A DNA stretch of 64,000 nucleotides from Narcine bancroftii (Eukaryota): NCBI RefSeq assembly GCF_036971445.1, contig NC_091470.1, positions 156,736,001 through 156,800,000 on the forward strand, given 5' to 3'. Positions 2,725 to 26,736 of this stretch are shown one piece after another; positions within the stretch are counted from its first letter, which is position 1, and each line of letters starts with the position of its first letter. The notes under the pieces were generated by a model. It was given only the letters and a program-made list of their open reading frames with translations, was not told the DNA's origin and did not search any database. The position numbers and the translations under genes are program-made.

Positions 2725-2821
2725 CTAAGAAAGACAGAGCAGTAATTATCTGTTATTTTACTACCTCTTACGTCGACTGTGCGCATACACTTCCGTAAAT
2801 TCATTCAACTAAACTATTTTC

Positions 2822-4380: not shown

Positions 4381-4434
4381 CTGAAAATCATTTCAGACAA
4401 CATTTCAATAGTTTGGCAACATAAAACAGCACAG

Positions 4435-4655
4435 GAAAGATTGCAGATGTTGGAATCTGGAGTAAATTTTAAAAAATCAGATGGAGGAACTCCAGGGTCG
4501 AGCAGCATCAGTGGGGGAAAAAGAACTGGGCCTGAACCCATTCCCCATTCTTTTGACAGGTTCAGACCTGTATCATCGACAGTTCTTTTTCTTCCACTGA
4601 TGCTGCTCAACCCCTGAGTTCCTCCAGTAAATTGTGTGGTTTTTTTTTTTGCAAT
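4435..4655. repeat. Palindromic Penelope-like terminal-repeat element (family also at about 13395-13480, 15580-15740, 36660-36830, 50025-50160, 53100-53205)
   Basis: Arms TGGAGGAACTCCAGGGTCGAGCAGCATCAGTGG (from 4482) and CCACTGATGCTGCTCAACCCCTGAGTTCCTCCA (to 4626). Confidence 0.6.
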
Positions 4656-4907
4656 ACTTGTAGGGGCTTGGAGCAATTAAAAAATGGATGTCAAGAAAAT
4701 TGGGTTGGGCAGCGAGAAGAGCTGCTGTCTCACTGCTCCGGAAACTCAGGTTCACTTCTGATCTTTGCTATTATTTACATGGAGTTTCATGTTCTCCCCG
4801 TGGCCATGCTCAGAAGCGCTAATAGAATCCGTGTCAAGGGGATAGGATGTGTAGTGAATAGATCATGGGGAAATTAGTGGGAAAATCAGAGCTGTTATAG
4901 ACTTGTC

Positions 4908-5010
4908 TGAGAGAGAAAGAGAGAGAGAGAGCGAGCGAAAGAGGGAGCAAAAGAGAGAACGAGAACGAGAGAGAGAAAGAGAGAGAACGAGAACGAGAGA
5001 AAGAGAGAAC

Positions 5011-5042
<32 letters not shown>

Positions 5043-5187
5043 AAGAGAGAAAGAGAGAAAGAGAGAAAGAGAGAGAGAGAACGAGAGAGAACGAGAGAGA
5101 ACGAGAGAGAACGAGAGAGAACGAGAGAGAACGAGAGAGAGAACGAGAGAGAGAATGAGAGAGAAAATGAATGAATGAATGAGAGAA
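4908..5187. repeat. Compound (GA)n / (GAGAGAAC)n polypurine microsatellite
   Basis: About 280 bp of almost pure purine on the plus strand. Confidence 0.97.
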
Positions 5188-5605
5188 TTTTCATCCCTCA
5201 ATAACTCAGCATAAATAAATAATGCGGGACCAAGTCAGACGGAGTGTTTCAATGCTTGTACATCGATCACTTTGGAGCAGAGACCATGGTGATTGGCCTC
5301 TAACGTGGTCCATTCTTAAACCAGCAGTGTTTAGTGGTTGTTACTGCTTTTGTAAAGCAATTTTGAGAGTTGAGGTTTGTGGGTTAGCATAAGCAGATGG
5401 CAGCAACAAAGTGTCAAGCTTTGTGCTACTCTGCTCTCCTTTCACAGGAATAAATTCTGGGACTTCCTGAATTCCAAGCCCACATTTCCAGGTGCTGGTG
5501 TTGATAAGCATTTGATAATCAATATACATCTTACACTTTGGCTTTGAAATATAAACTCTTGTTCACAAGCGAATGACATTAACTGGGCAATATTTATTGT
5601 CTCAC

Positions 5606-5844
5606 CTGATAGCTGACTGGCCATTCTTTTCAATGTCACAGATGAGACTTTGGAAGCAACTTTCTCTCTCTCAAGAAATACCAGGCTGTCTGCTTTGTAT
5701 TTATTTTCAGAGTTTCCCAGTGGGTTTTTAACAGTGAAGTTTTTGAGGTATTTTGTTAACGGGTCATCCAAAGATACAATTTTTCCTTCCTCCCATAGTT
5801 TATACAGCATTATAGTGGGAAATATCTTGGAAATGCTTGCAATC
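5606..5844 (-). CDS. LACTBL1: LACTBL1-like coding exon 4 (catalytic SxxK)
   Basis: CAG acceptor 5845-5847, GTGAG donor; encodes RIASISKIFPTIMLYKLWEEGKIVSLDDPL...VTLKRMASQLSG. Confidence 0.92.
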
Positions 5845-6017
5845 CTGAAAAGGAAATTCATTCAGATCATGACTAAATTCAGAACTAAATTCAGAATATT
5901 TAAATATTCTTTAAATATTTTTTATGTTACACCAATGAGGGGTTACTTAAATAAGCAGTGTGGAATTAATAACTGAATTACGCCCAATACGCCAGAAAGA
6001 TTGGTGTGGAAAATTAC

Positions 6018-6175
6018 CTGTAAGCAGTATATTCATTTGGAGGTGGTGAGAACTCATCGGAAACATTTCTTTTGCCAAAGTTTCCTGTCCACAGCACAGT
6101 GTCATTGTATACTACAATAGCAGATATAGATGGCAGACTCATTGGATGTATCTGATGGCGCAGAAAGAAGTCAAT
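6018..6175 (-). CDS. LACTBL1: LACTBL1-like coding exon 3
   Basis: CAG acceptor 6176-6178, GTAATT donor; encodes IDFFLRHQIHPMSLPSISAIVVYNDTVLWTGNFGKRNVSDEFSPPPNEYTAY(R). Confidence 0.9.
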
Positions 6176-7647
6176 CTGTATGAAGACAGAAATATTTGCC
6201 TGAATTTATCATGAAAATTCAAATAGAGCAAAATTATACTAGTTCATTGACTAGAGTGAATGGGTAGGTCTTGTCTTTGTGCACAAGGAACTGATAGTAT
6301 GGATTCCACATTTTACATCACATCCCATGTCAACCTTGGCAAGGAGTCAGCCCTCTCTCTTCCAAGTCAAAAGATTACTGGTTCAATTGCCATTCCAAAC
6401 ATGAGCATAATTCGTGCAGACTCGAGTTGAAGGCTATCATGTACATTACATTTTGTTGTATTACTACATGTCAATAAAAAATTGAACATATGAAACTTTT
6501 AAGCATTTATATTCCATTATTGTAAAAACTTGTGTATTATGTAGTCTTCTTTCTTCCAGCTCATTTTTTTTTTTACAAATCCTTTCTGGTATCTTTGTGT
6601 GCTTTCCACCATCTGAATGGTTTCAAACATAATTTATGAATACTCCCTCATTCCCTTAATTTATCAGCCTTTCCAAGATCTTTTTATGTTTTTATTTTCC
6701 TCAATTGCAAAGCTATATTAACCTATTGAAAGACTAAATCGCTTTATACTTGCTTTTATCTGCATTACCCAGATTAAGGTGAGCCTGCGCATCTCAATCT
6801 AGTCGCGAAAAAGGTCCAAATCTCACCCACCTATTGTTAGTGGTTGAGACGAGAAGTACCAGCATTTAAATGCCCAAACTCCTTTCTGTGACTTAGATGC
6901 CAAGGTTCCTCCCCCCCCCCCCCCCCCCCCACCAAATAAACTCAAAGGTATTCCTACATGACATACAAAAAGGTATTTTCATGACTGTATGAGGACAGGA
7001 ATATCTTTTGATTATTAGGCTGAATTGTACCCAATTACGAAAGCAGATAAAGGTGCAATTTTTTCAGGAGCTGATTCTGAGAGGGAAGGCAATCTCTGAA
7101 AGGGCAATATTTATTTCATAAGTGTAATGCTGTGTTTCCATTAAATGTTAACAGTTCTGTTTTTAAAAAAAAAGAACTAGTTAAATACTATACAGAGTGC
7201 AAAATTATAGATTCAATATACTTGATTGTGGCAAAGTTACTGAAATACTTGAATGGAGCTTTTAATATTTCAAGACAATATACTTTAAAATAATCAATTA
7301 CCACAAAGATACACGAAATCTGATGTTTTTATTGGCAAGATGCTTTGCAGTAAATAATTGTGGTTTTGCAGTAAATAAACCTCAGATCTCTTGCAACAAA
7401 TTGGAGGATTTTATGCCAGATTATTGCGTAAACACCTGAAATACATGTTAATTTTTGAGGTTCACCAAGACTTTGTGGAAAGGCTAAAAACATCAGTGCC
7501 TGTCTGATAAGTACACTGAATCACTGACAACTTCAGACTTCCATTAAACTCAGAAAAATAAAAAAATAATCACTAAATTGCTGTACAACAATAATCACCA
7601 GTGGTTTTGACACCATAGGAAGTACTAAATTTCAGCCCATTACAAAC

Positions 7648-7754
7648 CTTTTCTAATGCTTCTTTTAGAACTGGTATAGGATGCATCAATGGTACAGGTT
7701 TGGGATGCCTAGGGCATATCTGAATTGCTTCAATCTTGTCAGATAAAACATCAT
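7648..7754 (-). CDS. LACTBL1: LACTBL1-like coding exon 2
   Basis: CAG acceptor 7755-7757, GTTTGT donor; encodes DVLSDKIEAIQICPRHPKPVPLMHPIPVLKEALEK; phases match. Confidence 0.87.
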
Positions 7755-8269
7755 CTGAAATAGACAAAGAAAAACACAGTGGGGAGATTTTTAGACAATA
7801 TGCATCAGGAGGACTTGCATTACTAGAAAACATTGTAACTGATCAAGGAGAGCACTTCATTCCATTTGTTACCAGGGGTGCAGTGCAAAATTTTAGATGC
7901 TGGAGTTCTCCAAAAGCATTGACAAGGACTTGCTGGAGCCACCCAATGAGGTGCCCAGAGCAGCCCTATAAGGTGACAAAGCGGCACTCCAATGAGCTTT
8001 GGCAGCACTGCACCCGTTTGTTATAGGTTGAATGCAGAGTGGATATAAAGTGTTGGAGATGGTGGGCAGGTAAAATAGCTGGGCAGAGCTTGTAGCAGTT
8101 GACAACAGGTAATACTGAACAACAAAAGATTTGCTTTCCAAAAATAAACAATGGGGATTATGATAGACAACTTCAAGCTGAATACAAATTCAGATTTGCT
8201 GCATCACATAGGTAGTTGACGAATCATTAAATTTCCGTTTACTAAATTTAGCATGTTTATTCGCATAAT

Positions 8270-8668
8270 GATCCTGACACATTGTGTTAGTTCAGTTGAC
8301 CTTAAAATGTTTTGCAGCTGATTTTTGTTTGTACTCAGCATCTGATGCCTCTTGTGTCAGTGTCCAGTTGCCCTGATACCACTTTTCCATGGTCGCAAGG
8401 TCCTGGTGAAACTTTTCACCATGCTCATCACTGACTGCACCAAGAGCAGCAGGGAAGAAGTCCAAGTGAGAATGAAGAAAATGAACTTCATGGTTTTGAA
8501 TGCTTGAAGTAGACTTAAAATATTGACAGGAAATCACAAAAATGGGTTATATCTTTAAAAAAATGGTACTTGATATGAAAATCTTCCAGCAATTTTCATG
8601 ATCAGCAGTCCAAAATCCATAAAATACATCCAAAAGTGTTCAGGAAGCAAAATCTTTGTTGTCCAGTG
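8270..8668 (-). mobile_element. Internally deleted Chapaev3 (CMC)-like DNA transposon
   Basis: Transposase C-terminal peptide HFLHSHLDFFPAALGAVSDEHGEKFHQD..MEKWYQGNW and terminus CACTGGACAACAAA at 8668; the other end is not seen. Confidence 0.7.
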
Positions 8669-8698
8669 TTCAAAATCGACAAACTTCCTTTCACTTAC

Positions 8699-8804
8699 TT
8701 GTGGCTTGCTTTGGAAGTTTGTACTGCCACACGAAGCAGCATGTCATGGTGATGGACAGAATTATAAAGAAAGCCATTCCAAGGTGAGGCCATTTCAAAT
8801 CCAT
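8699..8804 (-). CDS. LACTBL1: LACTBL1-like coding exon 1 (N-terminal signal anchor); exon acceptor lies at 8840
   Basis: ATG at 8804: MDLKWPHLGMAFFIILSITMTCCFVWQYKLPKQAT with a hydrophobic helix; GTAAGT donor. The frame is open back to a CAG acceptor at 8841-8843, so the true start may be further upstream. Confidence 0.8.
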
Positions 8805-11800
8805 TGCAGAACCTTTCTTCACACTTTGCCCGATGGCACACTGTTGGAAAGGAAAACACAGAACACAGATACACATCCCATCATTTCCTCCTTCAAGCAC
8901 TGCTATGTAGAGACAATAAAACATGTTCAGAAAAATACTTGATTTACAGAATTACAAGTCCTTAATGTGCTCAGAGGTTCAAAATTACTTTTAGCTTGCC
9001 TACAAGAAGCCAGGAACCAGCGAAGAGAATGATGTGCAGTGGAAGAAATCTATAGTGCAGCAGAGGGTTAATTTGTCACATGTCACCGAACCAATAACAG
9101 AGGATAAATCTTCATCCTGGATAAAGAGACGCAGATTTGACCAGCTTCAATCAATTCATTAGAAATTGAAATGAATATTTCCCATAGAGCGAAGAGAGTC
9201 TGCAATTCAGGAATGCCTAATGATGCTATATTACAGTGGTGTATCGATGCTTCAGGCCTGAACCCTTCCTCAAAGAACAGGAATTTCAAGTCCGCAGACT
9301 TTCATGTTTCGCAAACTCTGAAGACCAGAGAATAAGCTTCGAAACAGGTTGGACCCTGCAAAAAGGTGACAATTAAAAATAAATGTTTGGAACAATTATG
9401 AATAAAACTTTTGAGCAAGGCAAAGTGAGTGGAAAAAGTCAAGATACTCTTCATTAAATTGGCTGTCAAGACTTTTGTCATACACAACTCCGTCTCTGAA
9501 AGCTAGAACCCAATCACCTCACACACAGCATTCAAAAAGTAGTTTCAGCGTAAGTGTATAGGAATAGAAACTTGATTGGATTTAAGCTGCAGTTGTATCT
9601 AACCTCTGAAGAAGATGAAGAAGCAGTCCTTGCACGTACCTATTTACAATGGCTGAAGATTGTTCTATTCTTATTTCTTCAGGGCTCCGAAATAATGTCA
9701 TATTGCCAGGAAATGCAACATGTTGACACTTAACATTTTTGTGCATGGCAAACCCAGACTCACTGATTTGAATGATAAATTTTTTACCGTTATCAGATAT
9801 TGCTCACAACTAGCATCGTATGAACTTGAGAAATGAGAAGCAGTACTTCATTCCTTGAATAGCTCGGGTTGAAAATGACACCTGGTGAACTTGATCAGAC
9901 CAATAGTTCCAGCACATGTTCTTACCCAAAATCTTTCCGGAAGGAGGTGGAAGCAAAATTAACCAGACTTCCCGATAGTGGTCATACACCCACTATCACA
10001 GAATAACGGCAGTCTGCATGGCACACTTTGAGATTTGGGACATCCACCAAAGTCAAAATTACTTATCGTTTAAATGTGAATGAGTAAATATTGATTACAG
10101 ATCAAAGAAGGTGGAAATCTATATTTCACTGTATTATCGGTATTCATTCAGCTGCCTCACGAAAATATAACCTCCTTCTCAATGTACTCTGGTGATACCC
10201 TGTACACCACGTGTTCAGGTGCATTGACAGGAATAGACAAATGGAGAACCTGCATTGGCTCAGGGTAGCGAATTATGGGGATTTCATCTGCTTCAAAGTT
10301 TTGCAACGGCATAATTTTGGTTACATTCAGATTGATTTAAGATATACAAGTGATTATTGGAATTTGCAAGAAAGAGGGCACAATGACAAACACTTTCTAA
10401 TAAGTGGGCAAATTCACCCAGACAATGCAGCAAAGTAACAGGTGTAGAGGATCACTAACGGATGGAGAATGGCAACTTTCCCCCATCTAGCAGCCCCACA
10501 TATTAATGTGATGCGCCAAGTATCACAATATTCTTACCCATCCCTGGTCTTGATTTATATTATGCAGTACCCAGCTGCTTCAATATGCATATCCAGGACG
10601 AGATTCTGACCCTTGATCCATCCTAATCTATTGAACACAAATAAACTGTCTCTTGGAAAACAATCTATTCCCTTCATCATTCGCTCATGATCTTTCGGGA
10701 ATGAAATATGCTTCGCTTACCCAGTCTATACACAATGCCCAAGGGTCTTTCAGATCAAATTTAGCAGCAATTAGAGATAGACAACAATTGCTTCCATAGT
10801 GACACACCAACCCAGGAAAATATAAGCTCACTTTGTGAGCTTTGATCAAATCATATTTTTATGATTCTCCAAGCTGAAAAAACCCAGTTCTTCATTACTT
10901 ATCTGGGTGACTAAATGGGTTTCAAACTGACAATTAATCTTGTACTTTTCTGCACTCTTTATAAAGCTTCAACTTCACCGTTACCTTCCTGCTGAGAGGA
11001 ATGAATTCACCAACTCTATTACTAACATCAATAACATGCATTGGAAGATAACATAGAACAAGTTTCATGACTAACTACATCAGCTAATGTTAGCTAGATA
11101 AAATAATATCAGTGTTATTTTGGTCTCCGAATTATAGTGGTAATTAAGCCAAGATGAAGGCTGGAAGTCCACAGTGCAGCTTGTTGAGTAGAGGCAAGTT
11201 GAAGTAAATCAAAAAGTGCTTTCTGATATTATCCCAAATATTGCCAAAATAAACAAACGAAGCGTACAGATTAAAAGCAAATCAGCATGGACTCTGCCAC
11301 CATTTGGCTCCTATGAAAGTCAGAGCCTTTAAAAACATGTTGGTTCAATTTCTCTCCACACGAGCAGCTACTGGAAACCAGGACATGCAAACATCAGGAA
11401 TAAAGCTCTTAAAAAGGATTTCTCAGAAGCCCTAACATTAATCAATTTTTCACAGAACCAATCCCCGATGATTACTTTTAATTTCTTCAATTTAGGGTTG
11501 CCATCAAAACGTAACCATACCTTTGCTGCTCAAAATCAAAAGGTTTGATAAAGAATGCTGGCCAGTGCCTTTTCTCAGAGAAAAAGCATTTTTCAGATCC
11601 TTGTTACCAGGAAACTCACCCAACAGCATGCTTTACTCAATGGAGACATAACACAAATATATCTTCAATAAAATGCCCACCTCAAGGTTTAAGTCATGGG
11701 ACATTTGTAATGAAAGCTTGGAAATGCAGTGGTCTGATGATTTCACATCGTGGTAAATCACTAATGTGCTCTGCTCTGTCAACTCGATTTCTCCTCTCTT

Positions 11801-14332
11801 GACGTCATAATCCCTGGGTTTAGGTCTTAAATCTACAAGTGGGAAGCAAAGTCTTTAATCCTCCCATTTAATTCACTTTTGATCGAGTAGATATCTCTCA
11901 AGAGGAAAAAAAATCACAATAAATCACCCACTTACTGGTGTTCATCATGAACTCTATGGAAATTATGCATTTTGGCTGTGACTCCCGAATACTAAGTGGA
12001 TTTAGTAAATTTAGAATACTACAAAAGACTTAGAAAAGCAGCTAATCAGAGGACTTCCTAAACTCATCTTTACAAATCTGTTGCCACTAAATAATAACGT
12101 TTTATTTTGAATATTGAAAAAATGCACAATTACTTTTAAATGCTTTTCTATAAAAAGAACAGGCACATTTTAAAACAGAGGTACCAATGTCAGTGCTTTT
12201 CTGAAAAGAGCAAGGTGTGTGAGCAAAAGTCAGATTAAAATCTCTCACACACATGATATTTGGGAAGTTAGGAATAACTGGGAGGTGAGGGGAATGCTTG
12301 TAGTGGAAGGGAAGTGCTGACAGAAAAGCACTCAGGAAGAGTTGGGCATCTCCTCTCAACCATACACCAGCATCCGTTTCCTTTCAACCTTCGTACAATA
12401 TCAAGCAGCAAACTGATACCTGGAGGAAAATCCATCCTCAAGGAGGCAAGTCACATCAAATAGTATGCTGTCAGATTAACACTTCCTCCCTCTGCCAATC
12501 TTAAGGGTTTAAAAAAAAAATGCAATTATTCTTTTAATTCATTTTGTTCTACTTGTGTAATCAGAAAACATTTCTCTCTAGCTACCCTATAATACAATCA
12601 CCTATGCTCTGACTTATACCACTGCAACTGGCTGCAGAGCGAGGAAGGATTCCTTTACCTGTATCATGATGGGGTTTAATTTCAATTCCCTACGGTCCTT
12701 CCTCAGATACCACTGATGCTTTCTGAGCGAGTCCACATTACTTAAATGCTCGCTAGAGCCAAGTGTTGACAAGTTACTAATGGTATCGCCATCACATCAC
12801 AGCCTTTAACATCCAAAATAACACCAACAGCCATGTCATCGGCATTTTAAAGGGCATTGAGAGCCAAGACACATAACGTTCAATGCAAATGGTGCACAAA
12901 ACCTTTTCAATTGTTGTGATCTCAGCAATTTAAAAAAAAAACTGTGGATTAAATTATACCTGCCAGAAGAAAAATCAAAACTTCAGAATATTCTTAGGAA
13001 ATGGACAATGATTAAGTGTTATAAATTGTGCATACACCATTGTAACGAAGTTTAGGTTCAGTTTATGCAACTTCTGTGACCCAAGTACCTCCTCTTCTCG
13101 GAGTTTGCATTTTGGAACCAACAATGAATTTGTAACTGACAAGAGAATAGGCTTCAGAGTACTACATAAAAAAACCCAACATTTTAAAAAGTACTGTAGC
13201 ATCCATTTAAAGAAATTGCGTGTTATTGAAGTCAATTAGCAATAATGAGTCTGGATATAGACTGTTATCTTAATATGCCACAAGGGCCCAGCAGCACGAT
13301 AAAATGCTAATTAGTAAGGCATAGTTGAGAATCAACTCTTCCGCTGCAAATTAAAAACATGAGAAATTTGAGAAAACCAGGGAAATAAAATCTTGAGATG
13401 CTGGAGGAGCTCAGCAGGTTGAACCAGATTCATGGGTAGAAATGGCCAGTGTTCTGTGTTGGGACACTTTATCGAGACAATTATTGTCAAAAGCCAACGA
13501 TAATTAATGTAACATCATCCAGACCCAAGATTAACTAAGTATTTCTGCTGTGCTGCAGTGATTGAGTTGCGATTCAGAACAATATGTGAATGAAACCACC
13601 AGGTCTAAAACTCTGCTTCTCCCCAACTGCCCTCTGGGCTTTTTGACATCAGACAAAGGATTTTTGTATCTACAAGTCCGGATGCCAGAAATCTGGAATT
13701 CTCGAAAATTCTCACTTGAAAGCCAGACCACCCGAGACTCCAGACTTCTCGACAACACTCAGCCTTTGCGTGCATTTGTGCACCGCACGATCAACGTGAC
13801 ATACTGCCCAAGAATCCGGAAAATCCAAGCCCCAAGCAGTCCAGATTTTAGGCTTTTGATGTACTCAGGAGTTTCAAAGTTTAACCCACACATGTACTAG
13901 AGGTGAATGAGAATAATCCTAGACAAAAGGAAGATGAAGATCTTAACTGTACACGATCAAATAGGTGGTGGAGGCTGAAACTTTATGGGCATTTCAGTCA
14001 CATGGATGAAAGAAAAATAGAGGGTTACGAGGTAGGAAGGGTTTAGTACATTTGGTAGGAATGTACAGATCGGCACAACATTGAGGGCTGAAGAGCCTGT
14101 ACCATGCTGTAATGTTCTATGTCTATCTATCAGCAATGAATAGCCAATTCAAGATCATGGCCGTTAATAATAATAAGGCTAAATGATAGCACTCTCATTT
14201 CAGGTTCCTATTCTGGAACATGTTCTAGAATGACAATACACTTTGTGGTTGGAAAGTGCTCAGTACAAGTATGGTGTTGAAATTGCCAGTGTCAATTATA
14301 GGTATACCAAACATTTCAAACCCAGCAGCAAA

Positions 14333-15575
14333 TTCTTCTCTTTGGCTTGGCTTCGCGGATGAAGATTTATGGAGGGGGTAAAAAGTCCACGTCAGCTGCA
14401 GGCTCCTTTGTGGCTGACAAGTCCGATGCGGGACAGGCAGACACGGTTGCAGCGGCTGCAGGGGAAAATTGGTTGGTTGGGGTTGGGTGTTGGGTTTTTC
14501 CTCCTTTGCCTTTTGTCAGTGAGGTGGGCTCTACGGTCTTCTTCAAAGGAGGTTGCTGCCCGCCAAACTGTGAGGCGCCAAGATGCACGGTTTGAGGCGA
14601 TATCAGCCCACTGGCGGTGGTCAATGTGGCAGGCACCAAGAGATTTCTTTAGGCAGTCCTTGTACCTTTTCTTTGGTGCACCTCTGTCACGGTGGCCAGT
14701 GGAGAGCTCGCCATAAAACACGATCTTGGGAAGGCGATGGTCCTCCATTCTGGAGACGTGACCCACCCAGCGCAGCTGGATCTTCAGCAGCGTGGACTCA
14801 ATGCTGTCAACCTCTGCCATCTCGAGTACTTCGACGTTAGGGATGAAGGCGCTCCAATGGATGTTGAATATGGAGCGGAGACAACGCTGGTGGAAGCGTT
14901 CTAGGAGCCGTAGGTGGTGCCGGTAGAGGACCCATGATTCGGAGCCGAACAGGAGTGTGGGTATGACAACGGCTCTGTATACGCTTATCTTTGTGAGGTT
15001 TTTCAGTTGGTTGTTTTTCCAGACTCTTTTGTGTAGTCTTCCAAAGGCGCTATTTGCCTTGGCGAGTCTGTTGTCTATCTCATTGTTGATCCTTGCATCT
15101 GATGAAATGGTGCAGCCGAGATAGGTAAACTGGTTGACCGTTTTGAGTTTTGTGTGCCCAATGGAGATGTGGGGGGGGGGGGCTGGTAGTCATGGTGGGG
15201 AGCTGGCTGATGGAGGACCTCAGTTTTCTTCAGGCTGACTTCCAGGCCAAACATTTTGGCAGTTTCCGCAAAGCAGGACGTCAAGCGCTGAAGAGCTGGC
15301 TCTGAATGGGCAACTAAAGCGGCATCGTCTGCAAAGAGTAGTTCACGGACAAGTTTCTCTTGTGTCTTGGTGTGAGCTTGCAGGCACCTCAGATTGAAGA
15401 GACTGGCATCCGTGCGGTACCGGATGTAAACAGCGTCTTCATTGTTGAGGTCTTTCTTGGCTTGGTTCAGCATCATGCTGAAGAAGATTGAAAAGAGGGT
15501 TGGTGCGAGAACACAACCTTGCTTCACGCCATTGTTAATGGAGAAGGGTTCAGAGAGCTCATTGCTGTATCTGAC
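14333..15575 (-). mobile_element. RTE-clade LINE, 5'-truncated, copy 1
   Basis: RT motifs GVKQGCVLAPTLF and LLFADD, then QLRWVGHVSRM and a C-terminal CxxC..SH..C zinc finger; apparent frameshift at the poly-G near 15171-15182; 3' end GAAGCCAAGCCAAAGAGAAGAA. Confidence 0.9.
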
Positions 15576-16139
15576 TAAGGTTAGTAAAAACACAGAGATG
15601 CTGGAAGAATCAGCAGGTTCCTCAGTGTTCACAGGAGGCAACGATAGATAACCAATGCTTTGGCTGAGACCTGCTGAGTCCCTCCATCGCTTTTGGTTTA
15701 TCTTCTACAATCACAGCTTCTGGAGACTTTGGTGTTTCAAAGCAAGTTAAGGTTGTAGCAAAGAGATTTTCTGCCAGCTGCCCTATCGACAGGAACTGGT
15801 GGTGAGACCATCACATTGTTGCACTTAACATTGAGCTCAGCACGCACGTCCCTGTTCACATCACTCATTCTTAATTTACTTTTTTTTCCCCCCAGAAAGA
15901 ATCAGAATTTGTCACAAACAGGTCATGAAATTCATCATTTTGCAGCCACATCACAGTGCAAACATTCACATTAACCATTTTACAAATTAAATAAAAATAG
16001 TGGAAGAAAAAGACAAAGTAAGGGTGTGTCAATGGGTCATTGTTCGTTCAGGAATCTAATGGCAGAGGGGAAGAAGCTGTCCTTGTGCCATTGAGTGCTC
16101 ATCTGTACCTTTTTCCTGATGGTAGCAGAAAGAGCAGTG

Positions 16140-16624
16140 CACGCCTTATCTGGGCTGCGAGAATTAGAGTTGGGAGGTAAAATCCACTCACGTACAACCC
16201 AGGTTACATCAGACGAGCAGGATGAAAAGAGAGGGTCTGCTGCTAATAACGGACCGACAAGAAAGGACCTTTTTCTAACCTTGTTAAAGTTAGGCGTACC
16301 TAAAAGTGATATTGATGGGAAACCTACTGCAGTCCTTTATAAGAGAAAGGCAGGCGAACATCATCCCCAGCTGCTGAGTCCTCCTGGCCCAGCTGTGCCC
16401 TCTGCTCCTCCTGCTGCTTCTATCGAGCCGGCTTCTCCTGCTCCAGTTACCCATGATGAGATACAACAAATGGTTAACAAGGCTCTTCTGGATAATAGTA
16501 GCATGTGGTCCTGGAAGCCCCCGAAGGTGTGGGCAGGGCTCCCGTGTCTACTCCATTGAGATACGACGGATATACGGGGACCCACGGCCCTACATACCGT
16601 TAACAATCCATTGGGGTGGGGGAG
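16140..16624 (+). pseudogene. Inverted ERV gag C-terminus and protease N-terminus fragment
   Basis: TRKDLFLTLLKLGVPKSDIDGKPTAVLY resembles the ERV-L gag motif GVPRSEIDRKPTAFLL; GDPRPYIPLTIHWGGG resembles the ERV-L/ERV-S protease start. It is on the opposite strand to the LTR. Confidence 0.7.
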
Positions 16625-17008
16625 CCAATATTTGGGTCGGTCCTGACTGGTGCAAAGAATTTCGCTCAACATGGAACAGCGTTGTCACATGGCTTCTAGC
16701 TCCTCCTCTAGTTGCTCTCTCTTGTGCTGGGATTCTACTTCTCTTTGAACTGATTCTGCTTCATGCTGAACGGCGCGGCGTAAGGCTGTGGCCAGCAGCC
16801 AACAATAGTCCGTCAGCTTCCCTTTTTTGCCAGGAAATTTACTTTCTCGAAGGAGAGTGGCACTTGATGGGTCTAACTTTTCATTCCAACTAATGGGTGG
16901 TCCCAACAAAGACAGGGTATTGCCCAACATGCCAAACCCATTGTCTTTGGAAGTCCATCCCGGAATCAAGAACTATTCAGGGCTCACCTCTTTCTTTTGG
17001 CGAAACAT
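16625..17008 (-). pseudogene. gag: ERV gag N-terminal fragment (class III-like), with internal stops
   Basis: ATG 10 nt after the PBS: MFRQKKEVSPE*FLIPGWTSKDNGFGMLGNTLSLLGPPISWNEKL...CWLLATALRRAVQ...REQLEEELEAM*, a W-rich N-terminus followed by a coiled coil. Confidence 0.65.
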
Positions 17009-17017
17009 CTTGAGACC

Positions 17018-17036
17018 AACCCTGCTCGCTGCGCCA
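17018..17036 (-). other. Primer-binding site complementary to the tRNA-Ser(UGA) 3' end
   Basis: TGGCGCAGCGAGCAGGGTT is the reverse complement of AACCCTGCTCGCTGCGCCA, the 3' end of vertebrate tRNA-Ser(TGA) as recalled. Confidence 0.85.
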
Positions 17037-17038
17037 AT

Positions 17039-17750
17039 TGTCCTGGGTAAACTTGTACCTCTCACTTTGTTCGATTTAGATTGGTCAGTGTTTGAGCTAC
17101 CGAAATAGACACACACACCGAGAGCAGTTCAGTGTATACAAATGTTTATTACAAATTCAAAAGCTGATTTCAAACTACAATATGCAAGCCCTTCCCAATT
17201 ATACTTATCAACACCTGGACTGGTCCCAACTGCCGAAGCAAGGCAACGACTGCACACTTGTAGTTAGTTGTCGGGGCGCCGGTAGCATCTTCTCCACCTC
17301 CCCCGACCGGAACGTTGGCTGGACTCTAGAAGTTCTTCTTCTTGCTGAGAGATGTTGCTACCTCTCGGAGAGTCTCAAACTTCAGCAACGGGACCATGGC
17401 TTATATTTCCCAAAAACTGCTTACCTAAGCACCTTTTCCCAGCAAAGTAAGAAAGATAAGCGAGCAAGCTAGCAAGCTAGGCTTCTATCGAATAACGTAA
17501 TTTTTAGCTTATCACTTTGAATGCAGTGGTTTATTTTGCATCAAGGCTCGGCCTCTGACAGCCTGTGACCAAAACAAGTAGGAAGATTAAATGTTCTTGG
17601 TACACAGATACCCTTTCGTCAGATAACAGCATCTCTGGCCCCTCGGTGGAATTTAGCTTATGTCTGCTGATTCTAAAAAACAAGCAGGTTCTCAGCCTTG
17701 TGGAAGCAAAGGCTGCAAAAGTGAAAAAACCAGTTTAAATCTTCCATTAC
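17039..17750 (-). mobile_element. 5' LTR of an endogenous retrovirus (712 bp)
   Basis: Minus strand starts TGTAATGG and ends CCCAGGACA (TG...CA); TATAA at 17401-17405; AATAAA at 17145-17150; followed 2 nt later by a PBS. Confidence 0.88.
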
Positions 17751-18469
17751 AGGTGACTAATGGTAATTTCTCATTACAGGAATGGTGCCACATCGACCCA
17801 ATGTGACAAATGGGATCGTTGCTGCACAACACCTAAAAGCACCTCTGACTGTGCCACACAATTTCTCTACTACAGGATGAGCCTCTTTAATTCGGCAATA
17901 TTGGAACCTGGGCATTGCCGGACCACAGAAAATGCCAGAAAACAGAAATTGACCCTTAACACTTATTAGCACTAGGACCATCTTCTGCACCTCTTGGATG
18001 ACATCCTGAAGTGCTAAAATGCAGTTGAATACAAGAAATTGACAGGACTGAATCACCAAAACACTCCACTGCAGTGTAAAGAGATTTTGGCGCATTAGTG
18101 CTGCTAACAGCGCCGCCCTGGTGGCAGATACACAAATGAATGGTTGCAGATTCAAAACTGCCAGACGACAGAGCACCAGATTGGGGAGGTACAATCTGTA
18201 CTATGAAGGGGTATTATCAGCATAGATTTTGTTTTTACTCAAGTATTTTTCACCATCTGTACACAGATTCAGCTCGGTGCTCGGAGATTTGCAATGATCA
18301 GTGGTATTAGAAAAGTTGAACTATTGTTGTCAATTTACCTTAATTCTCTTGCTAAACAGAAAACTAAGTTCAAGGACAATGGCAAAATACACACCAGAAA
18401 AACAACTTAGATCATTAGGTTTTAGCCACTCAAGAATAACCTTGATGGGATAAGATCGACCAATTGTAC

Positions 18470-19345
18470 ATGGACAACGCAATGAAATAGCATTCTTCTG
18501 TCCTTGGTGGGCAAAACATGCAGGCGCACCACACAGAACACGGATACAGACAAGCGATGCATGCATATACAGTAGATATAATTTATAAAGATAGTGTTTA
18601 ATTAATAGTACAGTCTTGGAGGGTTATTATGAGCAATTTATTCATCAGTCTCACTGCCCGTGGGAAGAAGCTGTTCCTCGGCCTGGTGGTGCTGGCTCTG
18701 ATCCTCCTGCATCTCTTCCCCGACAGGAGCAGCTGAAAGACGCTGTGTACTGGGTGGTAGGGGGTCCTCAATGATTTTGCACACCCTCTTCAGACAATGA
18801 TCCCAGTTGTTCATGGGTGGGGTAGGGGGCATGGTCCTGTGGATTGTCCCGATTCAATTCTCTACAGTAACATACCACAATGTGGCACTGGTGGCTAGGA
18901 AGCTCTCAATTGTGTCTGTCAAAAGTTGACATTATGGTGGCCAGTAGCCTTGCCTCTCTGTTTTCTCAGGAAGTGCAGTTGTTGTGCCTTCCTGACTGAG
19001 ATGTTGTGTATCCAGGATATGTCACTTGTTAAGTGGACTCCAAGGATCTTGGTGTACTCTACTCACTCCAGTACCAAGTTATTAATGCGTAGTCGAGGGC
19101 AATTGTCCCTGGTCTTCCTGAATCCCAGTCATCTCCATCATCTTGCCAACATGAGACTCAGGTTGTTACTCTCACACCATTCCACCTCTTCTCTGTAGTG
19201 TGACTCATCATTGATGCTGATGAGACGAACTACTGTTGTGTCATCTGTAAATGATGACTACTGGAGCTGGATCTGGTGAGGCAGTTGTGGGTCAGTTGGT
19301 TGAACAGAAGTCCTGAGGCGTTCCAGTGCTCAGTGTGACGGTGAT
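18470..19345 (-). mobile_element. Rex1/Babar-type LINE fragment
   Basis: Minus strand FTDDTTV-like motif and KIIEDP.HP...LLP.G C-terminal region. Confidence 0.7.
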
Positions 19346-19626
19346 CGACGTGCTCAATCGGTCCATGTACAACATTCACATGGTAAATGAGAGCTCTGAA
19401 CACAAGTCCTTGGGAAAACACGATTTTCATTCCAGTAATTTTAAAAATTGTCCAACCTTCTCTTACTGTTTGATGACATGAAGCAGAGAAAGATAGACTA
19501 CATAAAATTCTGGTATATGGAAAAAAAGGGTCAGCTGCATTTTTAGTTGTGTGTAAAGATTTATTGACTTTTACAAACAAACACAGATTGGAACATAAAC
19601 CTACCATATACTGAAGTCAACTTGTT

Positions 19627-19632
19627 TTTATT
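19627..19632 (-). terminator. Candidate UBE2J2 polyadenylation signal
   Basis: AATAAA on minus at the end of a 1.6-kb AT-rich, repeat-free putative 3' UTR; another at 19560-19565 and several more proximal ones exist. Confidence 0.3.
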
Positions 19633-21196
19633 GAAATTCAAAATAGATCTTTACTGGCAAGGCTCATGAATGGTTTCTAGATTATTATTTATGTAGAGGT
19701 TTGTTACTTTAAAAGGAAAAAAAATCTACAAATTCATTACTAATCTTATGGATAAGGCCAAAGCCTTGCAAAGTAACAACTTGTTTGTTTGTCAGTTTAG
19801 TGAACTTGCATTGTTTTTCCATTGTTCCATTTCAATAATTCCAAACTACAAAGTCACCAATGCTTTCTCAATTCCAGTGCAGCTTCCAAGAAACACTTTC
19901 CAAAGACATGACATATATGATCCATATTATTAAGGGAGAACTGTAGAAACATTTTGATAAACATTTCTCTACTCTATAGTTTCAAAATAAAATCATGGAC
20001 TTTACACTTACACCAGTCTTGTCAGGAAATTAATTATGACTTCTGGAAGATTTTTGGGCTCTTTCCAATGCCACTAAAGACCAACGATATCATTAATATT
20101 ACCTGAAAATTTTACTGGCAATTATTTTGATGTAGTTGCTGCAGTTATGCAAACCTTGCTCATTGTAGCAGAATGGCACAGGTATAACTATATCCTGGAA
20201 ATTACTTGACAATTACATTGTATTTTTCAACCAAGTGAAAAAAAATCTAATTCCATATTTATTGCTTGCTAGAGATGACATTTAAAATTCTAAATTTACA
20301 ATTTCAACACTCAATGCCATGAAACCAGGGTAAGACATTGCAAAAATTTGTCTCATGAAGTATCAAGCCCATTAAAATTTTGTGTAGATTGTATTGTTTG
20401 GAAAATCATATTGCTAAATTTCAAAGATATTGTAATAAGGACAACATAACCATCTTCCATGTCCATTATAGCTTTGTTTCCAGCCACACAGGTGTGCATT
20501 TTTAAGGAAATCAATTACAAAAAATTGATTTCTGTAACTGGTTTGCCAAGGATTATCCATAAAACTTAATGAGGAAATGTTTCTAATTGCTTAAAGGAAT
20601 GTGCACAAGGTCTCGATCTCTTGGGATGTCACTTTATTTTACACTGGACGACCACACTCGCCTTTCCCCAATTTGCTAAAACAAATACAATTTTAAAATT
20701 GCTTATTCAACTTTGCACCCAGTTTTATTTTGCTCACCATTTACTTTTTGTATTTTATTATTCCAGAAATTCTTCCAGTATAGTCTAAATACAACAGCAA
20801 TATAAATACATTAAAAAGTCATTTACACTGGGGTAGATTTTTAATTATTGAAGGAAACAATTAAAATCTGAAATGTTGCTGCAAAACATGCCCCTTTTAG
20901 AAATAATGCTAGTTTCAGAATCCCCATAATTAAGAGGCATATTGGTCACCCATTGTAAAGTTATGCATGACCTGCATAGTAAATCTGAACCTTCTGCATA
21001 TTCTTGAACTACTTGTTAGCTCCATTGATCCATTCATGTGAAAGAAAACCATAGGCTCTAGTTGGTCATATTTTGTACAATGTAATGGTAATTACATTAC
21101 TCCAGTGCAGTCTTATTTTCTCCCCTTCTGCAAAGTTTCCCCAAAAGGAGTCAGATTTGCTTGCAAGTTTGCAATTATTTGGTCTCGTAGCCAGCT

Positions 21197-21475
21197 TTAT
21201 TCTTGTGCTATGCTTCGTAACACGTATTTCACTGTGTAGGCAAATGCTGCAAAACCAACAATGACGAACAAGTTTGCTAAAGCTCCCCCCAGGAGTCCAT
21301 GGTTTCGGTTGGCCTGTTGAAGGCCTTGGTGGTTGGCAGCTGGCAGTACTGCGTGCCCATTGAGTAGTGGCATACCATTTTGGTGCATTTCACCATCAGG
21401 GATAACATCCGGTAAAGGCAGAGTCTGGGCTCTGTTACTGAGTTCCTCTTGTGCCCGTTGCTTTTCTTTTATTTC
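21197..21475 (-). CDS. UBE2J2: Ubiquitin-conjugating enzyme E2 J2, last coding exon (C-terminal tail anchor)
   Basis: CAG acceptor 21476-21478; EIKEKQRAQEE...HGLLGGALANLFVIVGFAAFAYTVKYVLRSIAQE-stop, the characteristic UBE2J2 C-terminus. Confidence 0.96.
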   Translation of the reverse strand, partial: EIKEKQRAQEELSNRAQTLPLPDVIPDGEMHQNGMPLLNGHAVLPAANHQGLQQANRNHGLLGGALANLFVIVGFAAFAYTVKYVLRSIAQE

Positions 21476-21557
21476 CTGGAAACACAAGAATAAAGCCATA
21501 TTATTACATCTATTTGGAACCACCAAGATTTTTATTTTTCTTATGTCCTTTTAATGT

Positions 21558-21790
21558 GGCACATTCAGCGTTGGGGTTAGCGGAACGTTGTTATCGTGCT
21601 AGCGACCAGGACCGTGGTTTCAATTTCCACATTGTCTATAATGAGTTTGTACATTCTCCCTGTGGGTTTCCTCTGGGTGCTCCGGTTTCCTCCCGCTGTT
21701 CAAAACATAGCAGGTCAATTAGATGCAATAGGGCTTGTGGGTCAAAAGTGCCTTTTACCATGCAGTATGTTTAAATTTTTTTTTTAAATT
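21558..21790 (+). mobile_element. tRNA-derived SINE (family also at about 42750-42990, 46165-46425, 62095-62320)
   Basis: tRNA-like head with A/B-box remnants and shared core TTTGTACATTCTCCC...GGGTTTCCTC.GGGTGCTCCGGTTTCCTCCC. Confidence 0.7.
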
Positions 21791-22585
21791 AAATTAATCT
21801 CATTTTAAATATTTTCATCCCAGAAAAATATTGACCTAAAGTTCTCAACAACCATACTTCACCTTACCCTAATGTAAACTCTTGCATGTAACAAACATGG
21901 AGCAATAACAAAGCAATTACCAAATGCTGATTGCAATTTATGCTCAAACTTCGTTCTACCTTGAACTAATTCCCCATCCAGAATATTTGAAAATTTCAAT
22001 GTTTTAAACCTATCACAAAGTTGAACATCGTAAACGCTTTATACTTGCAATCTGTGTCAACCACTGTACAGCCACCTTAATGGGCTTGATTACAAGAGAA
22101 TTCCTACTCTACAAACTCCTAGACCACTGAAAGGCAATTCTCTTGATTTCCCGCATGGGAGAACTGTCTTTAGGTCACCCTCCAGGTGGTAATCTTCCTG
22201 AACTAAATGACCGGAACATTTGATATGTAGAGTCCACTAACACATTATTACCACTCACGTCATACTCACCATCCTGTTGAGGTCATTCTAGTTCGTATAC
22301 TTCATTTTATTGCAGTGCACAGTTTATAACATTTTCCTAAAGTGATTTCCATAGTTTTCTTTTGCATAAACTCCATTCAACACTTTGATTTTAATTTCCC
22401 CACTCAAAAAAAACCCCTAATGATTGATACAAAATGCTTCCATGGTGAACTAATGGATTTAAGCATTTGCAGAGGATATTTTCCCTATATCATAATTGCT
22501 TAGCTTATTTTTTATTTGATATACAAAACTTCCAACACTGATGATACATTTATTGCTTTAATTTTAGATATCCATGAACACCTAC

Positions 22586-22666
22586 CTCCACTAGATCTGG
22601 AAAGAGCTCACAAAACACTTTATCCTTTAGATTAAAGGCGCTGCTTTGGGCAGCAAGTTGTCTTTT
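22586..22666 (-). CDS. UBE2J2: UBE2J2 coding exon 5
   Basis: 81 nt, CAG/GTAGG; KRQLAAQSSAFNLKDKVFCELFPDLVE. Confidence 0.95.
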
Positions 22667-22834
22667 CTGGAAAGAAGAAAATATTAATTCAAGAATCAGT
22701 TACGAGTTGCAGGAAGAATTGTTTTTAAAGATTTTTCAAATTAAATGACATTATCATGAGACATGGTCACAAGTGACTTTTCAAAAAAGGAGCAAAATGG
22801 TAGCATTTCACCTCCCCTCTGGAATGCACTTCAC

Positions 22835-23198
22835 CAGTGGTACTCAACCTTTTCTTTCACACCCAACCCACTTTAAGTATTCCCTATGCCATCGGTGCTC
22901 TGTGATTAGTAAAGGATGGCTTAAGGTGGGATGTGAGTGGGAAGGGAAGGTTGAGAATCACTGCTCTAGACCCAATTGTGACTGAAATATTTTGCTTGAG
23001 AAAAATTGTCTTTCGCCCATTTCCTTTGGAGTTATGAAACTGTGCACATAACGAGCCAATTAGGATTAAAAGTGGTTTTCAAACATATTATTTGCATTCA
23101 CCTACTGTCTAAGCAATCCCTTACTAATCACAGAGCACCTATGGCATTGGGATTACTCAAGGTGGTATGTGAGTGGAACCAAAGTCTGAAAACCACTG
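22835..23198. mobile_element. hAT-Charlie-like composite MITE
   Basis: CAGTGGTACTCAACC...GGTTGAGAATCACTG, spacer, then a second degenerate unit ending AAAACCACTG; same family as 55568-55918. Confidence 0.75.
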
Positions 23199-24413
23199 TC
23201 CTAGTGGTTTGATCTATATCTGTGGTTGCTGAACAGTGGTGCAAAATGAAAAGTCATAGTTGAGTTCACACAGAAAACAGGAGCTTACTGTTGGACCCAC
23301 ACACTTTTTAAAACCCCGGGCTCCCTGCCACCCCCACGCCATGCATAGCTGAAGGTGATGTCATGGTGCTGCCCGAGACTTCCCGAGCCAGTTTGATTTC
23401 CTGGCAGGCAAGTCACCACACATCAAGCATTATATAAAACATTCACATATCAAAATACCCAATGGAAACTGCCTTCTTAAGTACAACTTTAAAAAATAAA
23501 TGCAATGAAAGGAAGCCTGGATAACATTGTGAATACTATGGCTCAAGTTTCATACCAGAGTGTATTGTGCTGAATGAATGGATTGGAAAATGATCTTGCT
23601 AATAGATTTTGAAACATGACATGAATTGGAGCAAAACAAGCTGCAATCAAAAACATCTACAAAAATGTACCATTCTAAACCTTTTTAAAAAAAAATTAGA
23701 TTTAGAAATTAGCATAATGACCATTAAAATAAGTAGATGATTTAGGCTGAGATAAGCTTGCTTTTCTAATATCTTAGTAACTGAACAAATTAGTTGATAT
23801 AATATTTTAGAGGTAGCCTAAATTAAGTGACAAATGGCAATCTCAAACATTACTGGAGTCTTCAAAAGTCTGCCTCATACATTTTCAAACACCAATTGAA
23901 GAAGGTGCAGAATAAACATGATGTGATTCCACCTTAATAAAAAAAATCCTCAATTGTCAACGGAAACAAACGTTGCAGAGATCTGCAAAAAAAATGAAGA
24001 CTTATTGACCCACCCACACTCTGTCCAGAATGTTTATTTTATGCTGCTTTTGTGGTTGAAAAGTTGAATGTTTGAATTCAAAATATTAAATAGTTTATCA
24101 TAGCTCCAGAATTGCTCATTACTTTTAGTCATCGACGAGGAAAGAGAACCAAGTTAAATGGAACCTTTTCCTGGCTTAGGAGAAATATCACCCAAAAACA
24201 AAGAAAAAAATAAGGCAAGGTAGCTTAGCTTCCCAACTTGGAATGTCACATGGAAATTGATAAAAAAGAAAATTGGAACATTCACCACACTTAATTCAAA
24301 GTTTATATAAAAAATGAACAAATGTTTCTAGCTTCATCAGTGTGGACTAGTTGGGTTAAAGGAGCCATTTCTGTTCTGTAGAACATTCTAAAGCTATAAC
24401 AAGAAGAACTCAC

Positions 24414-24552
24414 TGTATATTCCGAAGTTTCAATACTGCCCAAAGTAGGGCCTTTCTCCACCATGAAGCTAAGGAGACCTGTGAGGATTGTGGAAACAGA
24501 CCAGGCTGGGTTCCAGGTATCTGGATGGAAATCAGTGATTGATAAACATAAC
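24414..24552 (-). CDS. UBE2J2: UBE2J2 coding exon 4 (active-site Cys)
   Basis: 139 nt, CAG/GTGAGT; (R)LCLSITDFHPDTWNPAWSVSTILTGLLSFMVEKGPTLGSIETSEYT. Confidence 0.96.
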
Positions 24553-24708
24553 CTGCAAGGAAAAGTTTGCTAACAATTATTTATTTTTCAACATGGATTC
24601 AGCAATTTTGAAATCACTTATCCCACAATGAATTCATAAATGGGAAGTTCATTCTTTATACATCAACTCATCAAATAATAATTCCTTTGGTACAGTATTC
24701 TTAATCAT

Positions 24709-25832
24709 TACGTGATCCTTTATCCGGAAAGCTCCAAAATCCGTCGTGGGGACCGATCGCCGGGGGGGGGGGGAGGCGGCCGAAGGACCAGCAGTTGGGG
24801 GAGGCGGCCGAAGGACCAGCAGTTGGGGGAGGCGGCCGAAGGACCAGCAGTTGGGGGAGGCGGCCGAAGGACCAGCAGTTGGGGGAGGCGGCCGAAGGAC
24901 CAGCAGTTGGGGGAGGCGGCCGAAGGACCAGCAGTTGGGGGAGGCGGCCGAAGGACCAGCAGTTGGGGGAGGCGGCCGAAGGACCAGCAGTTGGGGGAGG
25001 CGGCCGAAGGACCAGCAGTTGGGGGAGGCGGCCGAAGGACCAGCAGTTGGGGGAGGCGGCCGAAGGACCAGCAGTTGGGGGAGGCGGCCGAAGGACCAGC
25101 AGTTGGGGGAGGCGGCCGAAGGACCAGCAGTTGGGGGAGGCGGCCGAAGGACCAGCAGTTGGGGGAGGCGGCCGAAGGACCAGCAGTTGGGGGAGGCGGC
25201 CGAAGGACCAGCAGTTGGGGGAGGCGGCCGAAGGACCAGCAGTTGGGGGAGGCGGCCGAAGGACCAGCAGTTGGGGGAGGCGGCCGAAGGACCAGCAGTT
25301 GGGGGAGGCGGCCGAAGGACCAGCAGTTGGGGGAGGCGGCCGAAGGACCAGCAGTTGGGGGAGGCGGCCGAAGGACCAGCAGTTGGGGGAGGCGGCCGAA
25401 GGACCAGCAGTTGGGGGAGGCGGCCGAAGGACCAGCAGTTGGGGGAGGCGGCCGAAGGACCAGCAGTTGGGGGAGGCGGCCGAAGGACCAGCAGTTGGGG
25501 GAGGCGGCCGAAGGACCAGCAGTTGGGGGAGGCGGCCGAAGGACCAGCAGTTGGGGGAGGCGGCCGAAGGACCAGCAGTTGGGGGAGGCGGCCGAAGGAC
25601 CAGCAGTTGGGGGAGGCGGCCGAAGGACCAGCAGATGGGGGAGGCGGCCGAAGGACCAGCAGATGGGGGAGGCGGCCGAAGGACCAGCAGATGGGGGAGG
25701 CGGCCGGGCGACTGGAAGGGGGTGGGGATGGATATGGCAGCATAATTCGGGTGGGCTTTCCGAAATGCGGAAAATTCCAAAATTCGGAATACACTGTCCC
25801 CTAAGGGTTCCGGATAAAGGATCGTGTACCCG
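24709..25832. mobile_element. Tigger/pogo-like MITE hosting the minisatellite
   Basis: Perfect 16-bp inverted repeat GATCCTTTATCCGGAA (24714-24729) / TTCCGGATAAAGGATC (25808-25823); TA near both ends. Confidence 0.65.
24775..25706. repeat. 28-bp GC-rich minisatellite, 33 full units plus a partial unit
   Basis: Unit GGCGGCCGAAGGACCAGCAGTTGGGGGA; 30 identical units followed by three with a T-to-A variant. Confidence 0.98.
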
Positions 25833-26633
25833 TACTTTTAACAGTTATCAGTTGATGACATTTCTATGCAAATTTCTGGTTGAGTAAACAAATGAGAGGA
25901 AGAAAAAGCCACATCCCTTGATCAGTCAGAGTCTTTTGCAAAATTTAGAAAGATTAGGTATAAGATTAGGCTCTTTCTCAATTAAAAGCAGTTCACTGGT
26001 TTTAGAGAGAAGTTATAAAATATGAGATGTAGGAAAATAAATGATTTCACTTTAATGGATACAACAGTACTTTTGTTCTACAAAGAATTTCTTCATCCAA
26101 ATTTTTAAATAGCAACTCAATGCATCAACTTTCTTGCACAAATTTCAAGGGCACTTCAAAAGAATTGAGCAAATACAAGAAACAATATTTTAAAATACAT
26201 TTTATATTTGATTTGCTTTTGAGCACTCAGGCGAAACAAGTTCATTCATCTTTCGCACATGACTTTAAAGATTTTTTTGGGGGTATGTCTGTGAAATACA
26301 ACCTGTTTAAATATAATTTATAGTGTAGACATGCACTAAAATTTAAATATAAACATTCCAGCATCAATAACGAAGTTTCTTGTAGTTTAACCTTAAACTC
26401 AGTTTGAAACATTGCTGCTTTGAGAACCTCTTTAGGATTGGCAAAGAAACAAGAAACACTCAATTTTATTAGAATACATGTTTAATTTACCTTAGTGTAA
26501 AAATGAGAAAGGAAGGACAAAACTGACAACAGAAACCACTGAACTACTTTATTGTATGTTGAAAAGAACTTGTGTTGCTTTAAAAGTTTTATAAAATTAA
26601 TGAAAATCTTAAGTCTTGAATCAAATTCCTTAC

Positions 26634-26736
26634 CGTGTATTACATTTGAATCTTCCATTTGGTGTGATCATGTAAATACTAGGTGGTTTGAATGGAAATT
26701 CTCTGGGGAACACTAACTTGCCATGATAAAGACCAC
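26634..26736 (-). CDS. UBE2J2: UBE2J2 coding exon 3
   Basis: 103 nt, TAG/GTAAGG; [34 protein letters not shown](R). Confidence 0.96.

Follow-up and report, generated by a model that had tools for sequence, protein, structure and literature searches.

The locus considered here raises the question of what kind of element left a long terminal repeat (LTR), a tRNA primer-binding site (PBS) and gag-like sequence in close succession within a 64-kb window, by which is meant the whole stretch of DNA that was analyzed, and of the state in which that element survives. What survives is a decayed fragment of 1.6 kb from a high-copy endogenous retrovirus (ERV); it consists of one LTR, a PBS for tRNA-Ser, and two gag pieces on opposite strands (Table 1). 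The order of a TG...CA LTR, then a tRNA primer site, then gag is that of an endogenous retrovirus. With good probability it is what remains of the 5' part of a single dead provirus, the interior of which was probably flipped and trimmed after integration. The high-copy family to which this provirus belonged is likely of the ERV-L/ERV-S (class III) type, and its host is likely an electric ray.

Table 1. Features of the ERV piece and its left boundary (window positions; strand as + or -)
Feature	Positions	Strand	Basis or remark
5' LTR, 713 nt, TGT...ACA ends	17039..17751	-	Sequence; PBS begins 2 nt past LTR end
TATAA box, LTR position 347; candidate promoter	17401..17405	-	Sequence
AATAAA, LTR position 602, then GT-rich run; candidate polyadenylation signal	17145..17150	-	Sequence
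PBS, 19/19 complementary to tRNA-Ser(UGA) 3' end	17018..17036	-	Sequence
gag 5' piece, about 128 codons; basic N terminus, no Gly2, coiled-coil start	16625..17008	-	Gag comparison and profile
Inversion junction, tail to tail, best placed at near-palindrome 16625-16635	16615..16637		Minus-strand Gag identity and plus-strand protease start both end here
Protease N terminus with DPRPY motif, cut about 8 codons before the catalytic aspartate	16576..16620	+	Turtle ERV comparison by eye
gag 3' piece, inverted; capsid end, PSAP, no Cys-His box	16134..16559	+	92% to P0005 over 108 aa
GVPKSDIDGKPT motif within gag 3' piece	16293-16328	+	Sequence
PSAP late-domain motif within gag 3' piece	16398-16409	+	Sequence
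LINE-type repeat 3' fragment, unrelated to the ERV; left boundary, about 8-nt overlap with gag piece	15894..16141	-	Window repeats

The original prediction described a 712-bp TG...CA LTR with TATA and AATAAA signals; these features are present, on the minus strand, but the length is 713 nt. The LTR also contains a second TATAA (position 549) and a second AATAAA (position 217), and LTR sequence is found by sequence comparison in the gene model P0006 as well. An unmutated 19-nt PBS for tRNA-Ser, followed 10 nt downstream by an ATG that opens a gag-like frame, had likewise been proposed, and both are borne out, the PBS by a 19/19 match at 17036-17018 and the initiation codon by its location at 17008. 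HERV-S uses a tRNA-Ser primer, and the window copy has this trait of the ERV-S subgroup, with a match at 19 of 19 positions. The 16-nt core of the PBS occurs once in the window even when 2 mismatches are allowed, with 0.01 chance matches expected. The reference for the match is human tRNA-Ser(UGA), the last 19 nt of its 3' end being taken from the sequences in PMC11096365 and PMC12217144; a scan of metagenomes for the PBS core returned 118 loci, in which ARAGORN identified 0 tRNAs, and the pairing of PBS and tRNA therefore rests on the printed human tRNA sequences. Searches of the window for tRNA and Rfam families gave no match, and no second LTR or further piece of the element was found within the 64 kb. 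The minus-strand frame that passes through U5 and the PBS (17071-17009) runs on into gag. The Narcine models P0005, P0020, and P0021 start at U5 ATG codons upstream of the PBS and the window copy has no ATG there, which may only reflect annotation of the longest open reading frame. At the outer edge of the insertion, the terminal 9 nt of the LTR together with flanking sequence (CATTACAGG, plus strand) are repeated 27 nt further out, a local duplication that occupies 17744-17780.

Both gag pieces matched the same Narcine bancroftii protein, P0005, with identities of 77% for the 5' piece and 92% for the 3' piece, and P0020 (540 aa) aligns with the minus strand over aa 2 to about 157 and with the plus strand over aa 485-522. 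Since single Narcine Gag proteins map in two pieces on opposite strands, the window copy is probably flipped internally; P0005, P0006, and P0020 themselves carry both Gag parts in one sense. A profile of 9 non-ray Gags, built from frogs, a newt, turtles, and other sources, matches the same two regions, 17005-16637 on the minus strand (iE 2.2e-7) and 16140-16430 on the plus strand (iE 7.6e-15), and has no further significant match within the window. The two motifs that the original prediction placed near the gag start are indeed present, but they lie, like the gag end, on the plus strand, opposite to the LTR, the PBS, and the gag start, so that the window does not contain a colinear proviral 5' end; that reading had missed the internal inversion and the losses. 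The protease start is identical at 10 of 11 residues, compared by eye, to those of the turtle class III ERVs Ap_sp_ERV17 and Pe_si_ERV2 in the PMC6001957 supplement. In the window copy the protease start is in the +1 frame relative to the gag 3' piece. A search with the protease start gave 1 candidate, with none scored, and its comparison with P0015 gave no match.

According to the mapping of P0020, about 330 Gag codons, including almost all of the capsid, are absent between the two gag pieces, and the protease active site, pol, env, and the 3' LTR are absent from the window. Judged from its sequence, the window copy is incapable of making a capsid or an enzyme, and its LTR is at most a candidate promoter or polyadenylation site. 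Pfam has no significant match for the window pieces or for P0020; weak matches to DUF5535 (E 0.016-0.095, with the gag 3' piece at E 0.075) count toward a kinship with Fv1.

The family is likely class III, of the ERV-L/ERV-S type, a well supported assignment that is based on Gag, the protease start, and proxies rather than on an RT of the family itself. This accords with the class named in the original prediction, and the Fv1-like Gag, the PSAP motif, the lack of a zinc knuckle, the protease start, the YIDD motif of a proxy, and the layout, which is like that of XtERV-S, all point to it. A search with P0005 at E up to 0.001 returned 15 proteins (3 Narcine, 2 stingray, 1 whale shark, 2 frog, 2 newt, 2 turtle, and 3 other), and its relatives P0020 and P0021 were found by cluster look-up. 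In an ESM Atlas structure search with P0020, the Fv1 cluster ranked first, with a score of 950 versus 260 for the next row and a TM value of 0.51, which is under the Atlas bar for naming a family. P0007 is named “Fv1-like” by RefSeq, and Fv1 descends from MERV-L gag (PMC3948346). None of 14 proteins tested, among them the window Gag end, has a CCHC box, and 9 of the 14 include the Gag end. According to PMC1224870, zinc fingers number none in ERV-L and spumaviruses, one in SnRV, and two in epsilon retroviruses, and an SnRV-like or epsilon-like ERV is improbable on these grounds, as one or two Gag zinc fingers would be expected and none was found. The MHR pattern (QX3EX4-hydrophobic-X2R, as tabulated for XtERV-S) occurs at the aligned place in P0020 and 5 other proteins. 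In the stingray protein P0013, a family-type Gag N terminus is joined to an RT with YIDD, a motif described in PMC8278194 as typical of ERV-L-type RT and not of foamy viruses. Foamy virus was rejected as a candidate on the MHR pattern in P0020, the YIDD (not YVDD) of the stingray proxy, and the fact that no Pfam Gag family matches P0020. ERV-L proper was also rejected, as a tRNA-Leu PBS would be expected and that of the window is for tRNA-Ser(UGA).

Searches at the level of structure were less discriminating. Among the PDB matches listed for the P0013 RT, which include no ERV-L RT, MLV RT scored 151 bits and foamy RT 126, and an Atlas search with this RT returned generic RT clusters only. In the Atlas feature search with P0020, Ty3/Gypsy-type gag clusters scored 0.81-0.87, equal to or higher than the foamy Gag cluster at 0.81, and every one of these scores was below 0.9. 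In a fold search with the predicted model of P0007, which covers a region that is deleted in the window copy, the top 11 rows were retroelement capsids at middling Z scores (Z 5.2-6.0, rmsd 3.1-5.2); the foamy capsid was the best retroviral row (Z 5.6, rmsd 5.2, 150 aligned), tied with Arc, Copia, and PNMA. Foldseek gave nothing significant for both Gag models, the full-length one being of low confidence (pLDDT 59.6), a PDB sequence search with P0008 gave only chance matches to antibodies, and a search of viral contigs for relatives of P0020 gave 3 pattern matches, 0 of them confirmed.

Among the closest known systems is XtERV-S of Xenopus tropicalis which, according to PMC8278194, has an LTR of about 705 nt with TGT...ACA ends, a TATAA box, and a poly(A) signal AATAAA followed by a GT-rich run, the same arrangement as in the window LTR, and a similar 19-nt PBS for tRNA-Ser(AGA/TGA). 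The same source gives XtERV-S a Gag of about 530 aa with features shared by the ray family (a basic N terminus, no myristoylation signal, MHR, PSAP, and no Cys-His box) and, as a further likeness, many deleted copies and solo LTRs. This is a likeness of features and not of sequence alignment, and there are differences: the leader is 30 nt in the window copy versus 158 nt in XtERV-S, protease and gag are in frame in XtERV-S (one frame with a stop between) but +1 in the decayed window copy, and the intact XtERV-S has a pol gene, a dUTPase, and an env of class I-like type, regions that are absent from the window. Rh_ty_ERV3 of the whale shark, a member of clade Huo published in 2018, has a Gag with the same capsid and IDG motifs as the ray family, as seen by eye in PMC6001957, where it adjoins HERVL, murine ERVL, and HERVS in the order of the tree tips, which is a matter of order only. 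The whale-shark model P0018 matches P0020 with an E value of 4e-21 at only about 25% identity over 308 columns, so that the whale-shark element is a different family. With MuERV-L/HERV-L and Fv1 the ray family has in common an Fv1-like C-terminal region of Gag and no zinc finger, together with the YIDD of the stingray proxy; ERV-L, however, has a tRNA-Leu primer and no env, whereas the ray family has a tRNA-Ser primer site (PMC3948346, PMC1224870, and PMC5930517). The RT starts of the turtle elements Ap_sp_ERV17 and Pe_si_ERV2, whose hosts are amniotes, resemble that of P0013 by eye (PMC6001957). CmiERV lineage I and the snakehead retrovirus are class III in the broad sense and offer a case of this class in a cartilaginous fish (PMC4422223), but SnRV has one zinc finger and the ray-family Gag none (PMC1224870).

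The course of events can be outlined in conditional terms. From retroviral biology in general, the ancestor would have primed reverse transcription with tRNA-Ser(UGA), would have integrated via the TG...CA ends of its LTRs, and would have used an ERV-L-type Gag, which had a PSAP late domain but lacked a zinc knuckle, for particle assembly or budding. At this locus, the segment containing the gag end and the protease start may then have been inverted where short sequences are shared, by template switching or by the repair of breaks, and a deletion reaching the neighboring LINE fragment may have removed the remaining provirus. The left end of the ERV piece adjoins the 5'-cut end of that fragment, with about 8 bases shared. 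The fragment, which we take to be Rex1-like, is 76% identical to 52536-52787, 86% to 38881-38922, and 79% to 54411-54452. LINE twin-priming was ruled out as the cause of the inversion, as the two pieces meet with their tails and the element stops on the outside at the exact end of the LTR.

Other origins of this arrangement have to be weighed against a single provirus rearranged in place. Two proviruses of the family could have inserted nearby in opposite orientation and been fused tail to tail by deletions; the family is high-copy, and the gag start is farther from P0005 than is the gag end (81.5% versus 92.5% identity, 23/124 versus 8/107 differing, Fisher p 0.019), which fits an origin from two copies. 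Such an origin is nevertheless improbable, requiring two insertions and at least two deletions, and the gag pieces do not overlap in Gag coordinates; moreover, DNA divergence from 3 contigs only is similar on either side (29/257 versus 21/150, p 0.44). Less probable than this is that the piece is a true ERV or LTR element but not of the ERV-L/ERV-S type (SnRV-like, epsilon-like, or Gypsy). The Atlas feature and fold searches do not separate its Gag from Ty3/Gypsy-derived capsids, no RT of the family was found in the searches, and the P0013 RT scores best against MLV among the solved structures listed, but the similarity to Fv1, the missing zinc knuckle, the YIDD RT of the stingray relative, and a protease start like that of turtle clade Huo ERVs argue against it, as does the kinship of its Gag with whale-shark P0018 (E 4e-21), the Gag part of which resembles Rh_ty_ERV3 by eye.

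An assembly error in this repeat-rich region, which would make the inversion an artifact, is a slighter prospect again. No contig listed spans the junction and no piece listed spans the whole stretch, and the junction is not among the 15 contig joints listed (there are 494 further joints); against this, the unique flanks at 15549-16009 and 18100-18668 match contigs of organism A without differences, and both junctions carry short shared sequences like those of natural repair joints. The inverted form could also have arisen during reverse transcription or be a non-autonomous derivative replicated at many loci. The depth in run X1 is similar on either side of the junction (24,393 versus 15,669), and internal inversions are mentioned for HIV proviruses, but the annotated P0005, P0006, and P0020 have their parts in one sense. 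As the copy lacks its 3' LTR and adjoins a LINE fragment on the left, at least one event came after integration, and this is the least probable of the alternatives.

The single provirus flipped after integration is thus the preferred reading, and its decay bears on its age. The gag 5' piece is interrupted by stops at codons 12 and 108 and has a gap of 7 codons. The family Gag start in the window is 78-82% identical in amino acids to three Narcine Gag starts, which are themselves 90-93% alike, so that this copy is decayed, whereas there may be younger members in the family. The region 13500-20500 was covered with contigs from four public runs; the listing is confined to the longest pieces out of about 248,000, which biases the sample, and the depth of run X5, which may be RNA, was left aside. 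The window copy differs by 8-14% from all 8 contigs listed on the element, including unbranched contigs of depth 101-556, and 27 of 40 variable sites listed (there are 322 further sites) fall in the element, where another letter accounts for at least 82% of the X1 depth at every one of them. The original prediction had regarded the family as fairly young on the strength of an unmutated PBS and few stops. There are, to be sure, only 2 stops in 125 codons, but the count understates the decay, given the 7-codon gap and the 8-14% divergence, and youth is unsupported for the window copy. Absolute dating of the insertion was ruled out, as there is one LTR only and the shark rate in PMC4422223 is an assumption.

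Contig depth is very high across the LTR and falls off past about 17750. In run X1 it sums to 117,603-309,519 for the bins of the LTR and to 15,669-38,883 for those of gag, with contigs of the single-copy flanks at depth 3-10; according to the depth tool, summed depth is not a copy number, and it shows a high-copy family with an excess of LTRs. Some LTR variants in the contigs skip about 127 nt (17087-17215) or about 80 nt (17424-17505), which suggests LTR subfamilies. Hints of recent amplification come from P0020, a Narcine model in which about 500 Gag codons run free of stops, from the mutual similarity of the Narcine Gag starts, and from unbranched contigs of 129-153 nt at depths of 101-556 versus 2-10 for the single-copy flanks. 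It is a tentative and rather doubtful proposition that the genomes of electric rays contain an ERV-S-type family that has amplified recently, is perhaps copying itself still, and has full-length copies; this would be the first well-preserved ERV-L/ERV-S-type lineage described in a cartilaginous fish and would link the frog, turtle, and mammal members.

The locus is likely an ordinary relic of a known ERV type, a broken copy, inverted in its interior, from a class III family of the ERV-S type, and not a new kind of virus. Its attribution to a cartilaginous fish, made at the outset, agrees with the closest Gag relatives, which are Narcine bancroftii proteins with 78-92% identity, so that the host is likely this electric ray or a near relative; a look-up of one host exon found no exact copy in the sequence collection. 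The accompanying view that class III is less well catalogued in chondrichthyans is not supported: clade III outnumbers clade I by 2,843 to 2,018 RT loci in 6 chondrichthyan genomes (PMC11089739), and Rh_ty_ERV3 has been in print since 2018 (PMC6001957). Class III belongs to clade Huo, whose members infect every major lineage of vertebrates (PMC6001957). SnRV-like ERVs of the elephant shark were described in 2015 (PMC4422223), and class III ERVs related to SnRV are also known from fish and amphibians according to a preprint (10.1101/2021.11.23.469661). No literature on an ERV family of electric rays was found in a search of openly available articles, and none of the genome papers listed for Narcine bancroftii is on ERVs by its title; subscription papers and bioRxiv supplements, which lay outside its scope, may describe the family. 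The locus itself, a dead and rearranged fragment, is of little import. The family, however, adds a batoid member to the ERV-L/ERV-S branch, for which surveys of RT fragments have so far been the main source in cartilaginous fish. Copies with paired LTRs of low divergence, if there are any, would make retroviral activity datable in a slowly evolving genome and would show whether fish ERV-S lineages kept env.

Several ray and shark RefSeq gene models are Gag-derived and misnamed. P0005 (XP_069743339) bears the RefSeq name SPACA9 yet is Gag throughout, P0006 (XP_069752347) joins LTR and gag sequence in one model, and the first approximately 250 residues of P0018 (XP_020392837), a whale-shark SDCCAG8 model, are Gag; these three are either annotation errors or ERV-driven chimeric transcripts.

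The element is flanked by a beta-lactamase-like gene (Pfam PF00144) at 1752-8900 (-), presumably LACTBL1-like, and by a second host gene at 21197-26665 (-), with motifs at 24515 and 26665, which we assume to be UBE2J2-like. The LTR lies between these two genes and points to the beta-lactamase-like gene about 8 kb away, for which it may be a putative promoter. An intron of the 21197-26665 gene contains, at 24629-25850, a 28-bp GC-rich minisatellite of >30 near-identical units, and exons of an ankyrin-repeat gene (Pfam Ank) are found at 55063-61113 (-). A very high-copy LINE with an RVT_1 match, which we presume to be RTE-like, is present at 14339-15704 (-), 58369-59156 (+), and 59365-59946 (+); this LINE is probably young, because two copies are 97% identical over 742 nt.
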